64,000 nucleotides of DNA from Minisyncoccota bacterium (lineage in GTDB: Bacteria; Patescibacteriota; Minisyncoccia; Phycocordibacterales; UBA9973), in contig DATKGV010000008.1 of assembly GCA_035510575.1 (NCBI GenBank), positions 4,618 through 68,617 of the forward strand, given 5' to 3'. Below are positions 8,043 through 62,464 of the stretch, piece after piece. Position 1 is the stretch's first letter, and each line of letters opens with the position of its first letter. Position numbers and translations under genes: made by a program. The notes under the pieces were generated by a model. It had not been told where the DNA came from. It searched no databases and saw nothing but the letters and a program-made list of their open reading frames with translations.

Positions 8043-8525
8043 ATGAATATTATACAAGAAACACTGCATACTATTAGTAATTATCCTGGCGGATACAGGA
8101 TGATTTATGACTTAATATATAAAGAAAGGAATAAACCAAAGAATAATGGGCAAGTACTTAGAAATACATTATCAAAAATGAAAAAACGTGGATTACTTTC
8201 TAATGAAAAAGGTGTTTGGAAAATCACACCAGAAGGAAAGATTTTCTTAAAAAATGAGAATGTATCATTGATTAAATTTTCAGATTCAAAAAATAAAAAC
8301 AATAAACTTCCCAAAACAACGATGGTAGTTTTTGATATTCCTGAAAAGAAAAGGCTTTACCGTAACTGGCTTCGCAATGAACTTGTTGGCTTTGGATTTA
8401 CACTTATTCAAAAAAGTGTATGGTTTGGTCCAGCACTTCCAAAAGAATTTATATCTTATCTATCGGATCGTAAAATATTGGAATATGTAAGATTCTTTAA
8501 AGTTACAGAGAATGATCTAATTTAA
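8043..8525 (+). CDS. small putative DNA-binding protein, paralog A (wHTH-like N-terminus with a conserved 'DIPE..KR...R..L...F..IQKSVWFGP' C-terminal module)
   Basis: 160 aa. A clear paralog of the ORF at 33894-34394 shares 'V/LFDIPEKK', 'IQKSVW(F/V)GP' and 'LPKEFI(S/D)Y'. The C-terminal module is loosely reminiscent of Cas2/PaaX-type folds (tentative). Confidence 0.5.
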   Translation: MNIIQETLHTISNYPGGYRMIYDLIYKERNKPKNNGQVLRNTLSKMKKRGLLSNEKGVWKITPEGKIFLKNENVSLIKFSDSKNKNNKLPKTTMVVFDIPEKKRLYRNWLRNELVGFGFTLIQKSVWFGPALPKEFISYLSDRKILEYVRFFKVTENDLI

Positions 8526-23210: not shown

Positions 23211-23250
23211 CCACTAGCAAGAACCACTAGCAAGAACGGTTCTAGCTAGT
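23211..23250. repeat. REP-like palindromic repeat at the 3' side of the RAYT gene (one full 26-bp unit, 23225-23250, plus an upstream half unit)
   Basis: 'CCACTAGCAAGAAC|CACTAGCAAGAACGGTTCTAGCTAGT'. The unit forms a roughly 12-bp hairpin (ACTAGCAAGAAC / GTTCTAGCTAGT). Confidence 0.7.
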
Positions 23251-23928
23251 GGGTTCTATTATAAAATAATTCTCTATAAAATCTTTAAAAGATTGCTGTG
23301 ATTGGAAATAATCGGGAAATGCTTTTTTATTTAAAATATTACTTTCTATTCTGTCTGTGCCTATATAATCTTGATAACTGGAATATCTGTATGTTTCTAG
23401 AAAATCTTTCATTTCTTTATTATTTTTGTCTTTGTCTTTATCTTGTTTTTCCCAACCTGAAAACTTAATATCAAGTACATTTAGATGAATATATGCAAAA
23501 AGCTGCCGCATATAGTTATCATCTGCTTTTATACATTTTGATTTAAAGAGTCCGCCAAACAAAGCTCCTTGTCTTTGGTATTTTTTGTTAAAAAACATTG
23601 AATATCCTACACCTATCTTCCTCATGAACTTTGTTATTCCTCCATCTACTTCCTGCTTAACTAATATATGAAAATGATTATTCATAAGGCACCATGCGCC
23701 AATAGAAACTAGCGGCTCGCTTTTATTTAAGATCATTATTTCTTCATATCCCTTATGAAGAATATTTATTAAATTATCTAGTTTAATTGCTTCCTTATTA
23801 TTTGCAATATATAAAAGCATTTTAAATCTCTCGAAATCTCTTTCAAGCTTAAAAATGACTCTTTTATCTATACCCCTATTATAGATATGATAATATTCAC
23901 CGGTTATGAATGAATCTTTGCGAAGCAT
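23242..23928 (-). CDS. IS200/IS605-family Y1 (HUH) transposase, REP-associated tyrosine transposase (RAYT)-like
   Basis: 228 aa with 'YYHIYNRGIDKRVIF', HUH motif 'NHFHILV' and the catalytic-Tyr region 'AYIHLNV' (YIHxNP-type). Flanked on both sides by the same palindromic repeat. Confidence 0.65.
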   Translation of the reverse strand: MLRKDSFITGEYYHIYNRGIDKRVIFKLERDFERFKMLLYIANNKEAIKLDNLINILHKGYEEIMILNKSEPLVSIGAWCLMNNHFHILVKQEVDGGITKFMRKIGVGYSMFFNKKYQRQGALFGGLFKSKCIKADDNYMRQLFAYIHLNVLDIKFSGWEKQDKDKDKNNKEMKDFLETYRYSSYQDYIGTDRIESNILNKKAFPDYFQSQQSFKDFIENYFIIEPTS

Positions 23929-23954
23929 GTTTACAGTATAACAAACACCTTAGC

Positions 23955-24116
23955 CACTAGCAAGAACGGTTCTAGCTAGTCCCCAAGGCGGTTTTTATCT
24001 TATACACTAGCAAGAACGGTTCTAGCTAGTCTCGGCAATTCCAGCTACCCACTAGCAAGAACGGTTCTAGCTAGTCCTCACTATATATTACCTATAGCAA
24101 GAAAGGTCTAGCTAGT
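23955..24116. repeat. array of four REP-like 26-bp palindromic units (CACTAGCAAGAACGGTTCTAGCTAGT; the last is degenerate) separated by 19-24 nt unique spacers, at the 5' side of the RAYT gene
   Basis: Exact copies at 23955-23980, 24005-24030 and 24050-24075. Degenerate copy at 24095-24116. Confidence 0.7.
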
Positions 24117-29482: not shown

Positions 29483-29570
29483 ACTGCCATTATTGTACCA
29501 TATATAATAATTTATAAACACAAATCAAAGTTATTTTGCGGTGTGGAAAACTATTTTTCTTTGTATTAAT

Positions 29571-29625
29571 CTCCCCCTGCCAAGGGGGAGATGCCGGAGG
29601 CAGAGGGGGTTGTATTAATTAATTT
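29571..29625. repeat. GC-rich repeat element, partial copy A (first hairpin only)
   Basis: CTCCCCCTGCCAAGGGGGAGATGCCGGAGGCAGAGGGGGTTGTATTAATTAATT in the divergent promoter region between the 27890-29482 gene and nusA. Confidence 0.7.
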
Positions 29626-30962: not shown

Positions 30963-33029
30963 ATGAATCCTTTCATTATTTTTGCTCTTGTTTCCTCAAT
31001 TGTCGCAATATTATACGGCCTGTTTCTGATAAAAATCGTGATGAAAGAAGGCGCGGGCGACAAGAAAATGCAGGATATCGCTTCGGCCATACAGCAAGGC
31101 GCAAAAGCATATTTAAATCGCCAATATAAGACAATCGGTATTATCGCTCTTATTTTATTTTTAATAATCGGCTTTATCCCGATGCTCGGGTGGATGATGG
31201 CTATCGGTTTCTTGACTGGAGCCGTATTATCAGCATTGGCTGGATATATAGGCATGAACGTTTCAGTTCGCGCCAATGTCCGCACGGCCGAAGCCGCAAA
31301 GAAAGGTCTTAAGGAAGCGCTTGGTCTTGCGTTCAAAGGAGGCACAGTTACAGGACTTCTTGTAGTTGGACTCGCCCTTTTAGGTGTAACTTTATTTTAT
31401 ATAATTGCGGAAAAATTTGTCGGTGGCGGAGCTGTCCGCTCTCTTGTCGGATTATCTTTCGGAGCAAGCTTAATTTCTGTCTTTGCTCGTCTTGGCGGCG
31501 GCATATTTACCAAAGCAGCCGACGTCGGCGCCGATTTAGTCGGCAAGGTTGAAGTCGGTATTCCTGAAGATGATCCTCGCAATCCCGCCGTTATTGCCGA
31601 CAATGTCGGAGATAATGTCGGCGATTGCGCAGGCATGGCAGCGGACTTATTTGAGACCTACGCCGTGACATCCGTTGCCACGATGCTGCTCGGGTCGCTC
31701 ATTTTCTCAAACTGGAGCAATGCCGTAATTTTTCCTCTGGCTATCGGAGGCATGGCGATACTCTGTTCCATTATAGGCACATGGTTTGTTCGCTTAGGTA
31801 AACCTGCCCGCCCTCACGATGTTTCGGGAGCAGGCGGGAATAATAATATCATGGGAGCTTTGTATAAGGGCCTCATAGTTTCCGGCATACTATCAGCGAT
31901 TGGATTTTATCCTATAACAAAGTGGCTCATGTCTGGGCAATCAATTTATTCTGTCGGCGCTCTTTACGTTTGCGCATTAGTTGGAATATTTGTCACAGCT
32001 ATGATTATAGTTGTAACTGAATATTATACTTCCACAAAATACAATCCTGTTAAATCAATCGCCTATGCATCGCAATCAGGTCACGGCACAAATGTCATTC
32101 AAGGTTTGGCTATTTCAATGAAATCCACAGCTTTGCCTCTTATCGCCATTGTTGTTGGAATATTAGTTTCATATCATTTCGGCCAACTTTACGGAGTTGC
32201 GGTTGCCGCCATGTCCATGCTTTCTTTAACTGGAATAATAGTTGCAATTGATTCATTCGGTCCTATTACTGACAACGCCGGCGGAATCGCTGAAATGGCA
32301 AACTTGCCGGAAAGCGTCCGTGATGTGACTGATCCGCTTGATGCCGTCGGCAATACCACGAAAGCTGTTACGAAAGGTTACGCTATCGGTTCAGCCGGAC
32401 TTGCCGCTCTTGTTCTCTTCTCTTCATATACTCAAGAATTTTCTGATCTCGGGCATAAATTAAATTTTGATCTTGGTAATCCGCTTGTTATCGTCGGACT
32501 TTTAATCGGCGGACTTCTACCGTTTTATTTCAGCGCATTATGCATGGAAGCAGTCGGTAAAGCCGCCGGAAAAGTCGTTGATGAAGTTCGCCGACAATTC
32601 CGCGAGATTAAAGGAATCATGGACGGTTCTGGAAAACCGGATTATGCCAAATGTGTAGACATCGTTACCACTGGCGCAATCAAGCAAATGATTGTCCCAG
32701 CGCTTATTCCGGTTCTGACTCCGATTTTAGTCGGTTTCATACTTGGACCACAAGCTCTCGGTGGACTCCTCGTTGGATCTATTGTTACAGGAATCTTTCT
32801 TGCAATCTCAATGACATCCGGTGGTGGTGCATGGGATAATGCCAAGAAATATATTGAACTTGGAAATCACGGAGGCAAAGGAAGTGATGCTCACAAAGCA
32901 GCCGTTACAGGCGACACAGTTGGTGATCCTTATAAAGACACCGCTGGTCCTGCAATCAATCCGATGATTAAGATTCTAAACATCATCGCATTGCTATTGG
33001 TTCCAATATTAATAGCAATTTGGTTTTAA
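30963..33029 (+). CDS. hppA: membrane-bound H+/Na+-translocating pyrophosphatase
   Basis: 688 aa with about 16 TM helices. Conserved '[20 protein letters not shown]' and '[19 protein letters not shown]' PPase motifs. Confidence 0.9.
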
Positions 33030-33137: not shown

Positions 33138-33770
33138 TTAAATCTTTTCATAACCAAGAAGACCATGAGTAGACTCACTAGTGTCTTTATTTATTATTTT
33201 ATTTTTTGCCCACTTCAACTCTTTTATATCAGAACCTACATTATTGGGATTAAAATCCCAATCACTCTCTTGATCATCAGAAACATTTTTATTTAAAAGT
33301 TCTTCAACTTTTTTAATTAATAACTTATCACTTATAGGTATTGTTTGTAATTTCATTAAAAGTTCATCATAAGCCATATTATTATCAAACTTTAAATCTT
33401 TTTTACCAATTTTTTCAGCATATCCAACAATATAATCAACTAATTGTTTGTCTTTCTTTAAATACCCTAATCTATGTTGAATATTATCAACCATTACACA
33501 AAAAGCGTTAAAAGAAAACATCTCAACATTAAATTTTTTATTAAGTTCATTTCGATATGATTTATCTTCTTGATCAAAACTCTTTCTTTCTTTTCCTGTT
33601 TCAAAAAATTTATCTGGGTCAACTTCTTTTAAAAATTCAAGTATTTTTTTCTTAGATCCTTCTTTTTGTAATCTAATTTCTTCTGGAGAAATACATTCAC
33701 TTATAATTTCTTTACTTAATTTATCAGAATCTTCAATTACTTCTTCCTTTTTATTTAATCCTTCATTCAT
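33138..33770 (-). CDS. acidic hypothetical protein
   Basis: 210 aa. No recognisable motif. Confidence 0.4.
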   Translation of the reverse strand: MNEGLNKKEEVIEDSDKLSKEIISECISPEEIRLQKEGSKKKILEFLKEVDPDKFFETGKERKSFDQEDKSYRNELNKKFNVEMFSFNAFCVMVDNIQHRLGYLKKDKQLVDYIVGYAEKIGKKDLKFDNNMAYDELLMKLQTIPISDKLLIKKVEELLNKNVSDDQESDWDFNPNNVGSDIKELKWAKNKIINKDTSESTHGLLGYEKI

Positions 33771-33893
33771 AAAATTTAGTTAATATTACTAATATGCCCA
33801 CATTCTACCCCCCCCCCAACGCATCTTGTCAATAAACTAGGTAACAATAATCTATTTCCACTGCCTTGCGCGATAGCGTAAAGTAATGGAAAG

Positions 33894-34394
33894 ATGTATA
33901 ATATAATTATGTCTTTAAAAAATGAAATTTTAGAAATATTGAATACTCCTAAATTTTACTATAAAGGAATTCCAATGAATGCCCTATTTTTACCTGCCCT
34001 AGACAGTTATAAACATAAAACAATTCAAAATAATTTTTATAATCTTAAAAAAGAAGGGTATATAGAAAAATCAAATGGAAAATTCATAATAAATAAAAAC
34101 GGTAAAAATTTTTTAGAAAAATCTAAAAAACCGCAATTAAAAATTTTCAAAAGTATGAAAAATAATAATCCTAAAAATCTGCTTCTACTTTATGATATTC
34201 CGGAAGATAAGAAAAAAGAGCGCGATTGGTTCCGCCGCACATTGATAAAATTTAGTTTTGTGATGATTCAAAAAAGTGTCTGGGTTGGGCCGTCTCCTTT
34301 ACCAAAAGAATTTATTGATTATACAAAATCAATAGGATTAAAAGATTCTATAAAAAGTTTCAAGTTGGAAAAAGGATATAATATACAAAAATAA
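33894..34394 (+). CDS. small putative DNA-binding protein, paralog B (same family as 8043-8525)
   Basis: Shares 'LLLYDIPEDKKKER..FRRTL..F.FVMIQKSVWVGPSPLPKEFIDY' with paralog A. Flanked by its own direct repeats. Confidence 0.5.
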   Translation: MYNIIMSLKNEILEILNTPKFYYKGIPMNALFLPALDSYKHKTIQNNFYNLKKEGYIEKSNGKFIINKNGKNFLEKSKKPQLKIFKSMKNNNPKNLLLLYDIPEDKKKERDWFRRTLIKFSFVMIQKSVWVGPSPLPKEFIDYTKSIGLKDSIKSFKLEKGYNIQK

Positions 34395-34493: not shown

Positions 34494-35585
34494 ATGAAAA
34501 TAACAATAAAAAAGCTTGAAAAAAGCGAAGTGGAAATATTGGGCGTATTACCTGTGGCAGATTTTGAAAAGTATGAGGAGAAGGCTCTTAATATCATAAG
34601 TGAAAGAGTTGAATTGCCGGGCTTCAGAAAAGGTAAAGCTCCTATCGCAATGATAAAAGAAAATGTAAAAGAAATGGAATTATTGGAAGAAATGGCAGAA
34701 CAGGCGCTTTATGATAATTATCCAAAAATATTACAAGAGAATAAAATAGACGCTATCGGCCGACCACAAATCGCAATTACTAAAATTGCCAAGGGTTCCG
34801 ATTTGGAATTCAAAATATTAACGGCAGTATTGCCGGAGATAAAGCTTCCTGACTATAAAAAAATAGCTAAAGAAAAAAATAGTAGCAATGATTTCAAAAA
34901 AGAAATTGTAGTCGATGAAGCAATGGTTGAGAAAACAATTCTTGATTTACGCAAAATGCGAGCTGAGCAAGCACAACATAAGGATCATGAACATGTACCT
35001 GCCCGCCCTCACGATGTTTCGGGAGCAGGCGGGAAAGGAGAAACTCACGTTGAAATTCCTGAAAGCGAATATCCGGCGTTTGATGATGCTTTCGCCAAAA
35101 CATTCGGCGACTTTGCCAGCGCTGAGGCATTAAAAGAAAAAATTCGCGCCAATCTAAAAATTGAAAAAGAAACCGAGCAGAAAGACAAGCTTCGTCTTGC
35201 TATTGTTGAGGAACTTTTGAAACAATCAGAATGCGAAATTCCAGAAATTCTTATAGACAGCGAAGTTGAAAAGATTTTCTATCGTTTGGAAGCAGATATT
35301 ACAAATATGGGTTTCAAATTTGATGAATATTTAATTCAAATTAAGAAAACTGAAGAAGATTTGCGAAAAGAATGGCGACCTGAAGCAGAAAAGCGCGCCA
35401 AGCTTCAAATGATAATCCAGACAATTTCCGAAAAAGAAAATCTCAAAGCAACTGAAGAAGAAATTGAAAAGGAAGTGAATAACATCGTAACCATCTATAA
35501 GGATGCTGATCCAGCCCGCGCCCGCGCTTATGTGGAACAAATGCTTGAAAATGAAAAGGTCTTTGCATTTCTTGAGAAACAATAA
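34494..35585 (+). CDS. tig: trigger factor (short form)
   Basis: N-terminal ribosome-binding domain '[14 protein letters not shown]' and C-terminal chaperone arm. Immediately upstream of clpP as in many bacteria. Confidence 0.7.
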
Positions 35586-43443: not shown

Positions 43444-44211
43444 CTAAAACTCAATCATTATTGGACAGTGATCGGAACCATAGTAATCAGATAGAGTTTT
43501 AAAATCTTTTATTTTTTTCATGAAATTTTTATCTACAAAAAAGTAATCTATGCGCCAGCCGACATTTCGGTCGCGTGCGCGAGTTATCTGATCCCAATAA
43601 GTATAAACATCTTTTTTATTTGGGTTAAGAGTACGGAAAGTATCCACAAATCCATTGTCTATAACTTTATCTATCCATTCTCGTTCCATCGGTAAGAACC
43701 CAGTTGAATCCTCATTATCTTTTGGACGAGCAAGATCAATAGCGGTGTGTGCTGTATTTACATCTCCAGTGAAAATCACATTATATCCGGCCTTCTTTTT
43801 CCTATTTATAAATTTTAAAAATGCATCATAAAACTCCATTTTATATTTTAATCGTACAGGTCCACCACCACCATTAGGGAAGTAGCAATTGATTAAAATA
43901 AAATTTTTATAATAAGAAATAACCGTGCGACCTTCATCATCAAATTCTTCTATGCCAATTCCATATTCAACTTTCTCTGGTTTTACTTTTGAATAGATAG
44001 CTACTCCACTGTAACCTTTTCTTTTTTTAGAAAATGAGAAATAAGAATTGTAACCAAAATAATTTCGGATTTCATTTGGCAATTGCTCTGGCTCACATTT
44101 TGTTTCTTGAAAGCAAACAATATCGGGTTTGTATTTCGAAAATAGGGGATAAAAATGGCCTTGATTGGCTGTAGCTCTTAACCCATTTGTGTTCCATGAA
44201 ATTATTTTCAT
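43444..44211 (-). CDS. xth: exodeoxyribonuclease III (EEP family AP endonuclease)
   Basis: Starts 'MKIISWNTNGLR' with 'FQETK' and a C-terminal 'GSDHCP' catalytic His. The ORF track N-terminal extension to 44277 is translation of a GC-rich repeat element. Confidence 0.8.
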   Translation of the reverse strand: MKIISWNTNGLRATANQGHFYPLFSKYKPDIVCFQETKCEPEQLPNEIRNYFGYNSYFSFSKKRKGYSGVAIYSKVKPEKVEYGIGIEEFDDEGRTVISYYKNFILINCYFPNGGGGPVRLKYKMEFYDAFLKFINRKKKAGYNVIFTGDVNTAHTAIDLARPKDNEDSTGFLPMEREWIDKVIDNGFVDTFRTLNPNKKDVYTYWDQITRARDRNVGWRIDYFFVDKNFMKKIKDFKTLSDYYGSDHCPIMIEF

Positions 44212-44230
44212 GATAGAAGTATAGCATTTG

Positions 44231-44324
44231 CCTCGCCCCCTGCTAAGGGGGAGATGCCGGAGGCAGAGGGGGTGCATTAATTAATTCACCCCTCCTCAAT
44301 CCTCCCCTTGTTAAGGGGAGGAGG
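44231..44324. repeat. GC-rich two-hairpin dispersed repeat element, copy B
   Basis: CCTCGCCCCCTGCTAAGGGGGAGATGCCGGAGGCAGAGGGGGTGCATTAATTAATTCACCCCTCCTCAATCCTCCCCTTGTTAAGGGGAGGAGG. Near-identical to 61463-61549. Confidence 0.8.
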
Positions 44325-44334
44325 AACTCAAAAA

Positions 44335-59478: not shown

Positions 59479-61455
59479 ATGAATTACCTCGAAAATCTCA
59501 ATGACAAACAGAAAGAAGCGGTTCTTTATACAGAAGGACCCCTTTTAATCGTGGCTGGAGCCGGAGCTGGCAAGACAAAGACCATTACGCATAGAATTAT
59601 CCATCTTATTCATCAGGGAATTGCGCCAAGTTCCATACTTGCCCTGACTTTTACTAATAAAGCCGCCAAAGAAATGAAGGACAGAGTAAGCGTGTTGCTC
59701 GGAGATCCTATACACGGCAATATGCCGGAGTTTGGAAGGACGGCTCGCCCCGCCCAAAGGCGGGACGAGCCGTTTATTTCTACTTTTCATTCTCTTGGAG
59801 TTCACATTATAAAAGAAAATGCTAGTTTGCTCGGTCTGACCAAGCATTTCACTATCATTGATGAACATGACGCTCTGGTTATTATTAAAGATGCGATGAA
59901 GGCGCGCGACATAGATGGGAAACAGCATGAACCGCAAAAAATAAAAAGCATCATATCAAAAGCAAAAGGCGATTTCATAACTGCTGATGCTTATAACAAT
60001 AGCGCGGCAAGCGCGTTGCAAAGCATTGTCGGAGTGATCTGGCGCGATTATGAAAGGACTCTTAAAAAAGAGAAGGCCTTGGATTTCGATGATTTATTGC
60101 TTGAGACGGTCTTGCTTTTGAAAAAATATCCCGAAATCAAAAAAAATTATCAGGACAGATGGCAATATATCCACATTGACGAATATCAGGATACTAATGA
60201 AGTCCAATATGAGCTCGTTAAATTGCTTGTGAATAAAAAAGAAAATATCTGCGTCGTCGGCGATACCGACCAGAATATTTACAGCTGGCGCGGAGCAAAC
60301 ATAAAAAACATGCTTCTATTTGAAAAGGATTATCCTAATGCCAAAATTGTCATGCTTGAGCAGAATTATCGCTCAACCAAGAATATTATTGAGGCGGCAA
60401 ACAGCGTCATCAAGAAAAACCAATACCGCATAGACAAAAATCTTTTTACTAAAAATATTGAAGGCGAATCAATCAGCGTGCACGAGGCCTACGATGAGGG
60501 AAGCGAAGCGGAATTCGTCGCAGACACTATAAGCGAACTGCTGCGAAAAAATGATCCAGAAGATATCGCCGTTCTTTACCGAGCCAACTTTCAATCGCGC
60601 GCGATCGAAGAAGCATTGCTCGGAAAGCAGATTCCGTACCAAGTGCTCGGAGTAAAATTTTTTGAGAGAAGAGAAGTCAAGGACTTGCTCTCATATATCC
60701 GCGCAAGTTACAACAGAGAGAGTTTATCAGACATAAAAAGAATTATTAATAATCCGGCGCGCGGCATCGGCAAAGTCACGCTTGTAAAACTTTTTGCGAA
60801 TCAATTCGCCATGCTGCCTGCCGCTATGCAAGAAAAAATAAATAAATTTTATTCATTGCTCGATGACATACACGCATATTCTGAATCTCACGCGCCGTCA
60901 GAATCCATAAAATATGTCTTGGAGAAAAGCGAAATTGAAAAAGAACTTTCGCATGGCACAAGCGACGAGCAAGAACGCTTGGAAAATATGAAAGAATTGG
61001 TAACCTTGGCAACCAAATATGATGCGATGCCGCAGGGAATTGGCATGGAAAAATTGCTTGAAGATGCCGCGCTTTCAAGCGATCAAGATACCTTGATGCA
61101 TAATATGGGTAAAGGCGCTCGCCCCGCCAACGGCGGGGTAAAATTAATGACAGTTCATGCATCAAAAGGGCTTGAATTCAAATATGTTTTCATAACCGGC
61201 ATGGAGCAAGATTTATTCCCTCATGCAATGAGCGGCACGAAAACAAAAGAAGACGGCGAGGAAGAACGGCGGCTTTTTTATGTGGCGCTGACGCGGGCAA
61301 AGCATAAATTATATTTATCATATGCAGAGCTCCGCACGATATTCGGCTCAAAACAAGTGAACATGCCGAGCGAATTTATTTATGACATTCCGGAACATCT
61401 GACAAGTTTTGAGCAGGGTAAGCCAAGTAATAAGGAGAAAATAGTTTATTTATGA
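59479..61455 (+). CDS. UvrD/PcrA/Rep-family SF1 DNA helicase (compact)
   Basis: Walker A 'AGAGAGKTKTITHR', motif II 'HIDEYQDTN', motif III 'VVGDTDQNIYSWRGA' and C-terminal 'VHASKGLEF...FYVALTRAK'. Contains two in-frame GC-hairpin insertions. Confidence 0.8.
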   Translation: MNYLENLNDKQKEAVLYTEGPLLIVAGAGAGKTKTITHRIIHLIHQGIAPSSILALTFTNKAAKEMKDRVSVLLGDPIHGNMPEFGRTARPAQRRDEPFISTFHSLGVHIIKENASLLGLTKHFTIIDEHDALVIIKDAMKARDIDGKQHEPQKIKSIISKAKGDFITADAYNNSAASALQSIVGVIWRDYERTLKKEKALDFDDLLLETVLLLKKYPEIKKNYQDRWQYIHIDEYQDTNEVQYELVKLLVNKKENICVVGDTDQNIYSWRGANIKNMLLFEKDYPNAKIVMLEQNYRSTKNIIEAANSVIKKNQYRIDKNLFTKNIEGESISVHEAYDEGSEAEFVADTISELLRKNDPEDIAVLYRANFQSRAIEEALLGKQIPYQVLGVKFFERREVKDLLSYIRASYNRESLSDIKRIINNPARGIGKVTLVKLFANQFAMLPAAMQEKINKFYSLLDDIHAYSESHAPSESIKYVLEKSEIEKELSHGTSDEQERLENMKELVTLATKYDAMPQGIGMEKLLEDAALSSDQDTLMHNMGKGARPANGGVKLMTVHASKGLEFKYVFITGMEQDLFPHAMSGTKTKEDGEEERRLFYVALTRAKHKLYLSYAELRTIFGSKQVNMPSEFIYDIPEHLTSFEQGKPSNKEKIVYL

Positions 61456-61462
61456 GATAATT

Positions 61463-61549
61463 CCTCGCCCCCTGCTAAGGGGGAGATGCCGGAGGCAGAG
61501 GGGGTGCATTAATTCACCCCTCCTCAATCCTCCCCTTGGCAGGGGAGGA
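61463..61549. repeat. GC-rich two-hairpin dispersed repeat element, copy C
   Basis: Greater than 90% identical to copy B. Located in the uvrD-rsmA spacer. Confidence 0.8.
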
Positions 61550-61585
61550 AAAACTCAATTTTTGAATAAATGCTAATATACAAAT

Positions 61586-62464
61586 ATGATTTATCATGCG
61601 AAAAAATCTCTCAGCCAAAATTTTCTAAAATCAAAACCGGCGCTTGAAATGATGATCAAAGCGGGCGAGGTTGATGACAATGATATTATTTTGGAAATCG
61701 GTCCCGGCAAAGGCGCCTTAACAAGCAAGCTTCTGGAAAAAGCGAAAAAAGTAATCGCCGTTGAGAAAGATAGCAGCTTGATCAGAATGCTTGAAGAAAA
61801 ATTCAAGAATGAAATAAAAAATAAAAAACTTATTTTAATAAATGAGGATATCTTAAAGTTTAAATTCCCCCTCCCCTTTACAAGGGGAGGGCTGGGGAGG
61901 GGTGAATTGATAGACCCCCTCTGCCCTTCGGGCATCTCCCCCTTATCAAGGGGGAGAGGGATTAATGAGTACAAAATAATAGCCAATATTCCTTACAATA
62001 TTACCGGCGCAATCATAAAAAAATTTCTCTCCGGAGAAAATCAGCCGTCGGTTATGATCCTGCTTGTGCAAAAAGAAGTGGCAGACAGAATTACTGCTAG
62101 AAGTAACAAAGAAAGCATTTTATCGCTCAGCGTCAAAGCTTATGGAACGCCGAAATATGTGATGAAAGTTGGAAAAAGATTCTTCTCGCCCAGCCCTAAA
62201 GTGGATTCAGCCATTATATCGATAAAAGATATCTCCAGAAAAAATTTCAAGACGCCGAGTGAAGAAGAGCAATTCTTCAAAATAATCAAGAGCGCTTTCG
62301 CGCACAAGCGAAAAGTTCTCCGCAAGAACTTGGAAGAGGTGGCATCGCTTGAAACTATTGATTTTATGTTTGCAAAATTAGGAATAAATCAAAAAATCAG
62401 AGCTGAAGATGTGCCATTTACGCAGTGGCTCTCGATAAGCAGATATTTATCAGAAAATGCCTAG
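61586..62464 (+). CDS. rsmA: 16S rRNA (adenine1518/1519-N6)-dimethyltransferase RsmA/KsgA, carrying an in-frame ~108-bp repeat-element insertion
   Basis: 'GQNFLKSKPALEMMIKAG...EIGPGKGALT' SAM-binding region and C-terminal RsmA domain. The segment 'LPFTRGGLGRGELIDPLCPSGISPLSRGRGINE' is encoded by an inverted copy of the GC-rich element seen at 44231 and 61463. Confidence 0.75.
   Translation: MIYHAKKSLSQNFLKSKPALEMMIKAGEVDDNDIILEIGPGKGALTSKLLEKAKKVIAVEKDSSLIRMLEEKFKNEIKNKKLILINEDILKFKFPLPFTRGGLGRGELIDPLCPSGISPLSRGRGINEYKIIANIPYNITGAIIKKFLSGENQPSVMILLVQKEVADRITARSNKESILSLSVKAYGTPKYVMKVGKRFFSPSPKVDSAIISIKDISRKNFKTPSEEEQFFKIIKSAFAHKRKVLRKNLEEVASLETIDFMFAKLGINQKIRAEDVPFTQWLSISRYLSENA
61865..61972. 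repeat. GC-rich repeat element, inverted copy D inserted in-frame inside rsmA
   Basis: The reverse complement aligns to copies B and C along its whole length with a few substitutions and a 4-nt indel. Confidence 0.75.

Follow-up and report, generated by a model that had tools for sequence, protein, structure and literature searches.

Palindromic repeats read in frame within genes of a Patescibacteria genome: a mosaic hairpin element in a permissive loop of the RsmA methyltransferase

Rickettsia palindromic elements (RPEs; Ogata et al. 2000, 2002, as summarised in PMC10969869 and PMC3733652) are multi-copy palindromes of ~100-150 bp found both between genes and in frame within housekeeping genes of a small AT-rich genome. 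Translation of these inserts adds a surface segment that the protein fold can accommodate, and no associated transposase is known. Repetitive extragenic palindromic sequences (REPs) lie mostly between genes, though intragenic REPs are known (PMC3733652), while bacterial miniature transposable elements with inverted repeats (MITEs), e.g., ERIC, BOX, Correia and the Coxiella QMITE, can fuse in frame with genes (review PMC10969869). Protein-coding palindromes have so far been treated as a Rickettsia peculiarity. Here we describe the same behaviour in an ultra-small genome of the candidate phyla radiation (CPR), where a GC-rich repeat of ~100 bp occurs in a 64-kb stretch of DNA with 39% GC (hereafter the window; Minisyncoccota bacterium, contig DATKGV010000008.1, positions 4,618 to 68,617) and one copy is read through in frame within rsmA, the gene for the 16S rRNA A1518/A1519 dimethyltransferase. 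With a probability of roughly 0.75, we consider this element to be a selfish, non-autonomous mosaic palindromic repeat with an architecture like that of REPs and their mosaics (bacterial interspersed mosaic elements, BIMEs) and behaviour like that of RPEs, which is tolerated in permissive loops.

Copy counts and the hairpin census cover the window. Repeat finding and alignment recovered the four sites that a sequence-only reading of this DNA had listed, and resolve them into three full copies and one 40-nt core module:

61860-61968 (61865-61972 in the repeat alignment), plus-strand coordinates: intragenic copy, inverted relative to the other copies, with a GC-rich core at 61867-61960 corresponding to RsmA residues ~F94-G125.
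61463-61556, plus strand: full intergenic copy with hairpins H1-H2-H3-H4, placed after the uvrD stop (61455) and before the start of rsmA (61586).
44231-44332, plus strand: full intergenic copy, flanked by two minus-strand sites, the stop of a xerC/D-like gene (44335) and the true start of xth (44211).
29570-29609, plus strand: the core module by itself (H1-H2-G-tail), TCTCCCCC-tgcca-AGGGGGAGA-TGCC-gga-GGCA-GAGGGGG, located upstream of nusA in the divergent region.
29561-29570, plus strand: left copy of a 10-bp direct repeat, TTGTATTAAT, that flanks the core module; the right copy is at 29610-29619.

The copies at 44231 and 61463 are direct repeats with 95% identity over 80 nt, the rsmA copy aligns with the 61463 copy on the opposite strand (86% over 65 nt), and the module at 29570 matches the full copies at 97% over 38 nt. 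The site at 29571 had been called a partial copy; it does match the repeat, but as a complete H1-H2-G-tail module that stands alone in many genomes. One 26-mer, GGGGAGATGCCGGAGGCAGAGGGGGT, is found exactly at 29585, 44248 and 61480, with no occurrence in 100 shuffles. The GC content of the element core is 64%, compared with 39% for the window, and all paired G5/C5 runs of the window fall within the four sites, as do all perfect GC-rich hairpins of at least 7 bp, bar one 7-bp hairpin in uvrD.

The unit had been described as having two hairpins, but a full copy folds as four GC-rich hairpins (H1-H4) with AT-rich, TTAAT-like ends. In the orientation of the intergenic copies, H1 is CTCCCCC-loop-GGGGGAG, H2 is GCC-GGA/GAA-GGC, i.e., GCC-GNA-GGC, H3 is GAGGGGGTG-ATTAAT loop-CACCCCTC and H4 is CCTCCCC-loop-GGGGAGG. 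The first two together with the G-tail form the independent 40-nt core module, CTCCCCC-loop-GGGGGAG-AT-GCC-GNA-GGC-AGAGGGGG. The hairpins of the rsmA copy are:

61869-61891, plus strand: H4, CCCTCCCCT-ttaca-AGGGGAGGG.
61894-61921, plus strand: H3, GGGGAGGGGTG ... GACCCCCTC, with an AT-rich loop.
61922-61934, plus strand: H2, TGCCC-ttc-GGGCA, whose loop reads GAA on the other strand.
61935-61957, plus strand: H1, TCTCCCCC-ttatcaa-GGGGGAGA.

Full copies (~95-105 nt) give four-hairpin folds with z-scores of -3 to -4. For the rsmA copy the RNA fold reaches -59.8 kcal/mol (z -3.55) and the fold with DNA parameters a z of -4.2; both strands of the element fold about equally well. The ends follow the pattern TTRARTTCC...GGAAYTYAA and the terminal hairpins are alike, but the flanks differ between copies.

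The gene that hosts the inverted copy, and the peptide derived from it, are:

61586-62464, plus strand: rsmA/ksgA, 16S rRNA A1518/A1519 dimethyltransferase, 292 aa, with the in-frame copy.
61867-61960: segment whose predicted translation would give RsmA peptides such as GGLGRGELIDPLCPSGISPLSR.

Read-through in frame, as the sequence-only reading had it, was confirmed: the open reading frame (ORF) has no stop codon across the element and the GC-rich core is read as F94-G125. The ~36 extra residues it had counted do reflect an insertion, of smaller size: ~32 residues are element-encoded, for a net gain of ~24-26 over the usual loop of 9-11 residues. The protein matches Pfam RrnaAD (E 8.9e-58), its only Pfam domain, and TIGR00755 (210 bits against a cutoff of 171), and it keeps all residues that are invariant among orthologues. 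The element site lies between methyltransferase motif III (NEDILKF) and motif IV (NIPY), and alignment to solved KsgA structures splits there into query residues 5-92 and 126-286, leaving 33 query residues against 12 in B. subtilis KsgA. An AlphaFold2 model based on 55 orthologues (predicted local distance difference test, pLDDT, 87.2; predicted template modelling score, pTM, 0.83) is confident save for the first ten residues and residues 99-125, the latter having a pLDDT below 50 and no secondary structure between strands 82-85 and 129-134; it resembles KsgA crystal and cryo-EM structures with template modelling scores of 0.72-0.88 (Foldseek). The alignment break at 93-125 and the low pLDDT speak for a variable, permissive loop, a point that the sequence-only reading had wanted checked. 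On this model the insert is predicted to be a disordered translated loop that leaves the Rossmann fold and the catalytic motifs intact, and the insert-bearing RsmA is probably still functional.

An assembly error had been named as a possible refutation. The identical RsmA protein is present on 6 contigs, and the 3 that were retrieved come from different samples (ERZ28653749, ERZ27254220, JGI 3300038473) and carry identical element DNA; since the same allele was assembled independently in at least three samples, the rsmA insert is not a misassembly. It is highly improbable that the segment is an assembly chimera or is removed before the mature protein forms in the manner of an intron or intein. 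The insert is structured and foreign in composition, as such an explanation would have it, but there is no intron or ribozyme match, ~32 residues are far too short for an intein, and the frame is open in all insert-bearing orthologues seen. An intein or self-splicing intron was rejected on the same grounds: 94 nt, no intron family in Rfam, and RrnaAD as the only Pfam domain.

The loop is a recurrent insertion site. Among the best 120 RsmA orthologues it has 9-11 residues in 92 and is enlarged in 28, of which 11 carry a type A insert, 11 a type B insert and 6 another. Type A (PLPLLRGGxGRGELIKNLPSxPSLVRRGGIN) is related to the insert of the window, while type B (FSGPRMREDEEPDHSxNLK) derives from a different palindromic element. 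When a neighbour-joining tree is computed with the loop left out, the proteins that bear an insert lie scattered and the nearest relatives of the window's RsmA (P0002, P0003) have the short loop. Orthologue alignment had been expected to reveal a lineage-specific insertion; the nearest orthologues do lack it, but enlarged loops in 28 of 120 orthologues, scattered over the tree and due to at least two unrelated palindromes, are not simply lineage-specific. The repeat family with its hairpins, the in-frame read-through, the loop position, the absence from the nearest orthologues, the repeated occupation of this loop by palindromes both related and unrelated, and the in-frame copies in further proteins and phyla (below) are all demonstrated. 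The reading frame is open in every insert-bearing orthologue seen, a set from which disrupted genes would have escaped retrieval.

Enlargement at the exact same position in 28 of 120 orthologues, and an insert that persists in several assemblies, could also be taken as signs of an adaptive protein feature, e.g., contact with a CPR-specific ribosomal element. We think this very improbable. The loop is short in 92 of the 120, the closest orthologues included, and is predicted to be disordered; the inserts are of unrelated types and in different frames; and the same DNA occurs between genes and in unrelated proteins. In locus L146 the first hairpin of the type A insert is read in a different frame from that in L144, so it is the DNA palindrome that is conserved and not the peptide.

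A further explanation is that the rsmA insert came by homologous recombination from the allele of another strain, through the conserved coding flanks of motifs III and IV, with the loop as an exchangeable cassette. The flanks of the loop are indeed conserved across orthologues (AATGAGGATAT and TACAAAAT(C/A)AT...AACATTCC), and the type A inserts agree in both orientation and position between the window, L144, L146 and L149. Furthermore, the rsmA genes of L148 and L149, from groundwater and metagenome strains, are ~99% identical except for a 108-nt segment of equal length that is type B in the former and type A in the latter, and this difference is a recent cassette swap. Even so, we find such an origin for the window's insert possible rather than probable. 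The type A inserts of L144, L146 and L149 belong to the window's hairpin family minus H2, whereas the window rsmA copy has H2 and a CTCCCCC-type H1 as in the window's intergenic copies, unlike the rsmA inserts of other lineages, which points to intragenomic copying or conversion. Recombination would also leave the first insertion and the copies in other genes unexplained. The neighbouring uvrD-rsmA junction shows the same behaviour: L144, L147 and L149 have nothing there (spacer 0-3 nt), while the window, L146 and L163 carry different variants, that of L163 in inverted orientation relative to the window copy.

RsmA is not the only protein affected. Scanning metagenome contigs with a DNA pattern spanning H4-H3 found the element family in frame in other CPR genes, namely those for Tgt, a class A penicillin-binding protein (PBP), a prepilin peptidase (at two places), a helicase and a membrane protein, in both orientations and several frames; the Tgt copy is a full three-hairpin unit in the opposite orientation. 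A peptide search with a concatenate of four open-frame translations gave 2 weak matches, probably due to composition filtering. In the window itself, a 39-nt GC-rich palindrome, ACCTGCCCGCCCTCACGATGTTTCGGGAGCAGGCGGGAA, is identical at 31802-31840 and 34997-35035, where it encodes 13 residues in the same frame in the genes for H+-pyrophosphatase (H+-PPase) and trigger factor, and a copy with 3 mismatches is present in uvrD of L146 (position 9812). A 45-nt hairpin in the window's uvrD (59732-59776; ACGGCTCGCCCCGCC-caaa-GGCGGGACGAGCCGT) adds 17 residues relative to PcrA 1pjr, between LLG and ISTFHS. With RsmA, H+-PPase, trigger factor and UvrD all affected, protein-coding palindromes are general in this genome, as in Rickettsia (PMC10969869, PMC3733652), and at least three palindrome families are translated here. 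This accounts for spurious ORF extensions and for unusual low-complexity loops (PLxRGG, GRG and ARP motifs) in CPR proteomes, marks permissive loops usable for engineering, and provides naturally occurring alleles, filled/empty and cassette-swap, on which the entry of palindromes into genes can be studied. A second in-frame GC-rich hairpin was observed in uvrD/pcrA at 61122-61138.

The likeness to RPEs is thus one of behaviour. Like them, the element is a multi-copy palindrome with intergenic copies and in-frame copies in unrelated genes, at fold-compatible sites of an AT-rich host genome. It differs in its host (Patescibacteria/Paceibacterota), in being GC-rich with four short hairpins rather than one long palindrome, in a core common to distant phyla and in striking the same protein loop repeatedly. 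The resemblance to RPEs and MITEs that had been suggested holds for this behaviour, given the in-frame copies in Tgt, PBP, prepilin peptidase and helicase, but not for RPE/REP sequence tags: GTAG, CGTC and GACG occur zero times on either strand of the four copies (no RPE consensus was aligned), and membership in RPE-1 to RPE-10 or REP was rejected on these tags. With REP, BIME and REPIN repeats the element shares short GC-rich imperfect palindromes in mosaics, with inverted pairs in Dehalococcoidia, an optional H2 and a core that stands alone. It lacks the GTAG/CGTC head, and REP families are species- or genus-specific whereas the core of this element is nearly identical across phyla. Like MITEs it is small, non-autonomous and multi-copy, with loosely inverted ends, in-frame fusions and false ORF extensions; unlike them it has no demonstrable signature of terminal inverted repeats plus target-site duplication, no parent insertion sequence was found, and its modules (H2, core) occur independently. 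The element is therefore a protein-coding palindromic repeat by behaviour that fails membership of the RPE and REP families and finds no clear place among classical MITEs.

The core module extends across phyla. We searched one-genome-per-species contigs for the pattern GGGGGAGATGCC-N4-6-GCAGAGGGGG (22 specified bases) and found it at no fewer than 119 loci, against ~0.2 chance matches estimated for uniform base composition. Hosts among the matches listed include numerous Dehalococcoidia chromosomes, each with several copies, as well as cultured Hyphomicrobiales (Jiella, Aureimonas, Mesorhizobium, Rhizobium, Ciceribacter) and Flavobacteriaceae, the complete genome of Aequorivita nionensis among them; further hosts are Bacteroidaceae, Acidimicrobiia, Anaerolineae, Spirochaetota, Cyanobacteria, Saccharibacteria and another member of the Paceibacterota. 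The CTCCCCC arm lies within 25 nt upstream of the pattern in 140 of 156 of the matches listed (~90%), and on the G-rich strand their H2 loops are GNA triloops in 65% and GGCA in 19%; six-nt H2 variants have almost always added a compensating C-G pair. The core in Dehalococcoidia is followed by an inverted partner whose H2 differs, resulting in H1-H2...H2'-H1' units. The Rhizobiales version was counted at 879 sites across 182 plasmid or chromid records, none of them annotated. The pattern was also found in 21 viral or prophage contigs; a BLAST search of the full element against phage records gave no match.

In lower-GC genomes the core is again in frame, in both orientations and several frames, within the genes for IMP dehydrogenase (IMPDH), MnmE, leucyl-tRNA synthetase (LeuRS), a tRNA m6A37 methyltransferase, RecQ and MutS2. 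In the tRNA1(Val) m6A37 methyltransferase of Aequorivita (L049:392-1132 in A. nionensis; orthologues P0123-P0242) it stands directly after NPPF, and insert-bearing alleles have 245 aa against 236-237 aa without it; this insert is inherited, is decaying within the clade and is read in two frames. Three side observations concern the core. In a Flavobacteriaceae LeuRS (L047:217-3771) it is in frame, and the protein also has a DUF559 (endonuclease-like) domain inserted ahead of its editing domain. Bins of gut Dialister and Paludibacteraceae (L016, L106, L110, L117; L029, L052, L063, L068, L081) have it inside conserved units of ~120-150 nt whose flanks are fixed and which sometimes lie in tandem, spaced 190 nt; these units may be a larger repeat or non-coding RNA, and their sharing across phyla may reflect binning errors. 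In two Dehalococcoidia loci (L097, L069) the core adjoins a second widespread palindrome (GTCATTCCTGCGCAGGCAGGAATCAC-like), suggesting mosaics of several pan-bacterial hairpin motifs.

No Rfam match fell on the core in the 18 loci of other phyla that were scanned, a literature search by sequence strings returned unrelated eukaryotic or viral primers only, and no paper was found linking CPR with palindromic elements. We tentatively suggest that a pan-bacterial super-family of mini hairpin elements, so far undescribed, may be defined by the 40-nt core, which is near-identical across Patescibacteria, Chloroflexota, Hyphomicrobiales, Bacteroidota, Acidimicrobiia and further groups, with dozens of copies per replicon and in-frame copies in essential genes. 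If so, its conservation would imply either recent inter-phylum transfer, which might mark a physical association of CPR bacteria with hosts, or else a host process or DNA structure of universal kind (a stable GNA mini-hairpin together with mirror-repeat G-tracts) by which the module is generated and maintained. In CPR, the core and foldback/template-switch copying would then reshape protein loops, these serving as exchangeable cassettes. The surprise is the identity of the core across phyla, and transfer or a shared generating mechanism, if either applies, would offer a handle on the open question of how REP-like repeats originate. Along with the modular four-hairpin build and the RsmA hotspot with its cassette swapping, it goes beyond the first reading of this DNA.

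Such conservation also raises the question whether the cell uses the element as a functional cis-acting structure, with the intragenic copies as by-products. It could stabilise or process mRNA in the manner of REPs, donate a promoter, bind a protein, or form a DNA structural motif, e.g., a hairpin or purine-motif triplex. Next to the intergenic copies are:

59479-61455, plus strand: uvrD/pcrA, upstream neighbour of rsmA, with in-frame GC-rich hairpins at 59732-59776 and 61122-61138.
44212-44277, minus strand: element-encoded, false N-terminal start of the xth ORF; xth proper spans 43444-44211.

The 61463 copy starts 8 nt past the stop codon of uvrD/pcrA, and ~30 nt separate its end from the start of rsmA, while the 44231 copy lies between the stop of the XerC/D-like recombinase gene and the xth start, both genes being on the minus strand. 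As the sequence-only reading had proposed, the N-terminal extension of xth is spurious: the ORF 43444-44277 opens with 22 element-encoded residues (MHPLCLRHLPLSRGRGKCYTSI) before the canonical MKIISWN at 44211, and Pfam Exo_endo_phos begins at residue 26. Its further proposal that the intergenic copies may act as terminators was not upheld, as a terminator scan found no T-tract after a hairpin at any of the three intergenic copies, and an intrinsic (Rho-independent) terminator role was rejected. In a search of Rfam 15, tRNAs alone scored at the gathering threshold in the window, with chance-level matches at E up to 10, and resemblances to tRNA-like structures, riboswitches and CRISPR repeats were dropped for lack of an Rfam match.

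For a functional element speak the near-exact 22-nt core, the compensatory extra C-G pair and the predominance of GNA loops described above, the mirror repeats GGGGGAGA and AGAGGGGG next to TCTCCCCC, the tight placement of intergenic copies between co-directional genes, and promoter-like hexamers that overlap or abut the copies at 44231, 61463 and 29570. These hexamers, however, are at shuffle-background level, and the lack of an Rfam match and of a T-tract weighs on the other side. The 61463 and 44231 copies both lie in co-directional gene pairs yet have opposite orientations relative to transcription, which makes one transcribed-strand function unlikely, and the rsmA copy likewise adds to the two orientations. 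Related genomes do without the element at the same junctions, with no replacement, and the copies in coding regions are read in several frames. On balance we judge a cis-acting function unlikely.

A selfish repeat accounts for these observations better, and we propose the following course. Copies would persist only where they are harmless, at gene junctions and in permissive surface loops of proteins, because the genome is compact and has 39% GC. They would spread through a DNA-level process acting on the hairpins, either HUH/Y1-type single-strand transposition or foldback/template-switch copying, after which short-patch homologous recombination between strains could move the cassettes. Stems would be kept perfect by palindrome correction and not by selection on RNA or peptide. 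That nucleic acid rather than peptide is kept is seen in the varying frames of L146 and L144, of Aequorivita, and of other proteins with copies in both orientations. Triloops of the type d(C-GNA-G) form unusually stable DNA mini-hairpins; taken with the bias of the loops between strands, this stability suggests that the element is active as single-stranded DNA.

The type B insert, which is not the window's element, provides a view of such copying. In the filled/empty pair L164 (355-468) and L165, which are 91% identical, the 84-nt insert consists of a palindromic core plus an inverted copy of the host's own 22 upstream nt plus 9 nt, with a 3-nt (TTT) microhomology at the junction. Type B is a long hairpin (L164:355-468; L163:10392-10500; L148:297-404) whose outer stem is made of host flank and its inverted duplicate; these outer stems differ between lineages, yet stay perfect (DNA fold z -7 to -11), a signature of foldback/template-switch copying and not of cut-and-paste with fixed ends. 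The inverted copy of host flank, junction microhomology and perfect stems are like those of template-switch mutagenesis. Quasi-palindrome correction and template-switching are known for point mutations and short tracts, not for spreading a repeat family.

Several results weigh against a selfish repeat. No protein family recurs beside 156 core modules in 140 loci when ORFs of at least 150 aa are clustered, common families such as ABC transporters being the only ones found, and no transposase with the element's ends was found in the 64-kb window or the fetched loci. The window does encode a RayT-like Y1/HUH transposase, but its gene is flanked by an unrelated palindrome, ACTAGCTAGAACCGTTCTTGCTAGT, once downstream and three times upstream, so that within the 64 kb examined the element, unlike a REP, forms no REPtron. 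No clear target-site duplication was found: the sole candidate is the 10-bp TTGTATTAAT repeat at the 29570 module and the other copies show none. This repeat may represent a duplicated target or, alternatively, an ATTAAT motif of the element itself, because ATTAAT-like motifs follow the G-tail in all copies, including inside the full ones. For type A, the filled/empty pair L146 and L166 is too diverged (76% identical, with an unalignable loop), and the pair of the window and L147 has the same drawback. Lastly, a near-exact 22-nt core across phyla is unusual for a neutral selfish repeat and hints at functional or mechanistic constraint.

The RayT-like gene (23242-23928, minus strand; region 23221-24080) matches Pfam Y1_Tnp at E 7e-7, and its best NCBIfam hit is REP_Tyr_transpos at 31 bits, below the cutoff of 80, with HFH and YxH motifs visible. 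Together with its ACTAGCTAGAACCGTTCTTGCTAGT repeats it represents a REPtron-like arrangement in a CPR genome. Searches of all fetched loci with this protein (tblastn) and with the flanking palindrome (blastn) found nothing. The TIRYT inverted-repeat motif GGGGWSAS (PMC3733652) fits the rsmA copy (GGGGAGAG) and matches at 7/8 positions in the core module; we treat this as a lead and did not use it as evidence.

Two minor features of the window were also observed. A C10 homopolymer at 33808-33817 is intergenic, between the ORFs 33138-33770 (minus strand) and 33894-34394 (plus strand), and is a possible slippage-prone tract. Two small ORFs, 8043-8525 and the same 33894-34394, have PaaX_M/Cas2-like domains, with no CRISPR array noticed nearby.

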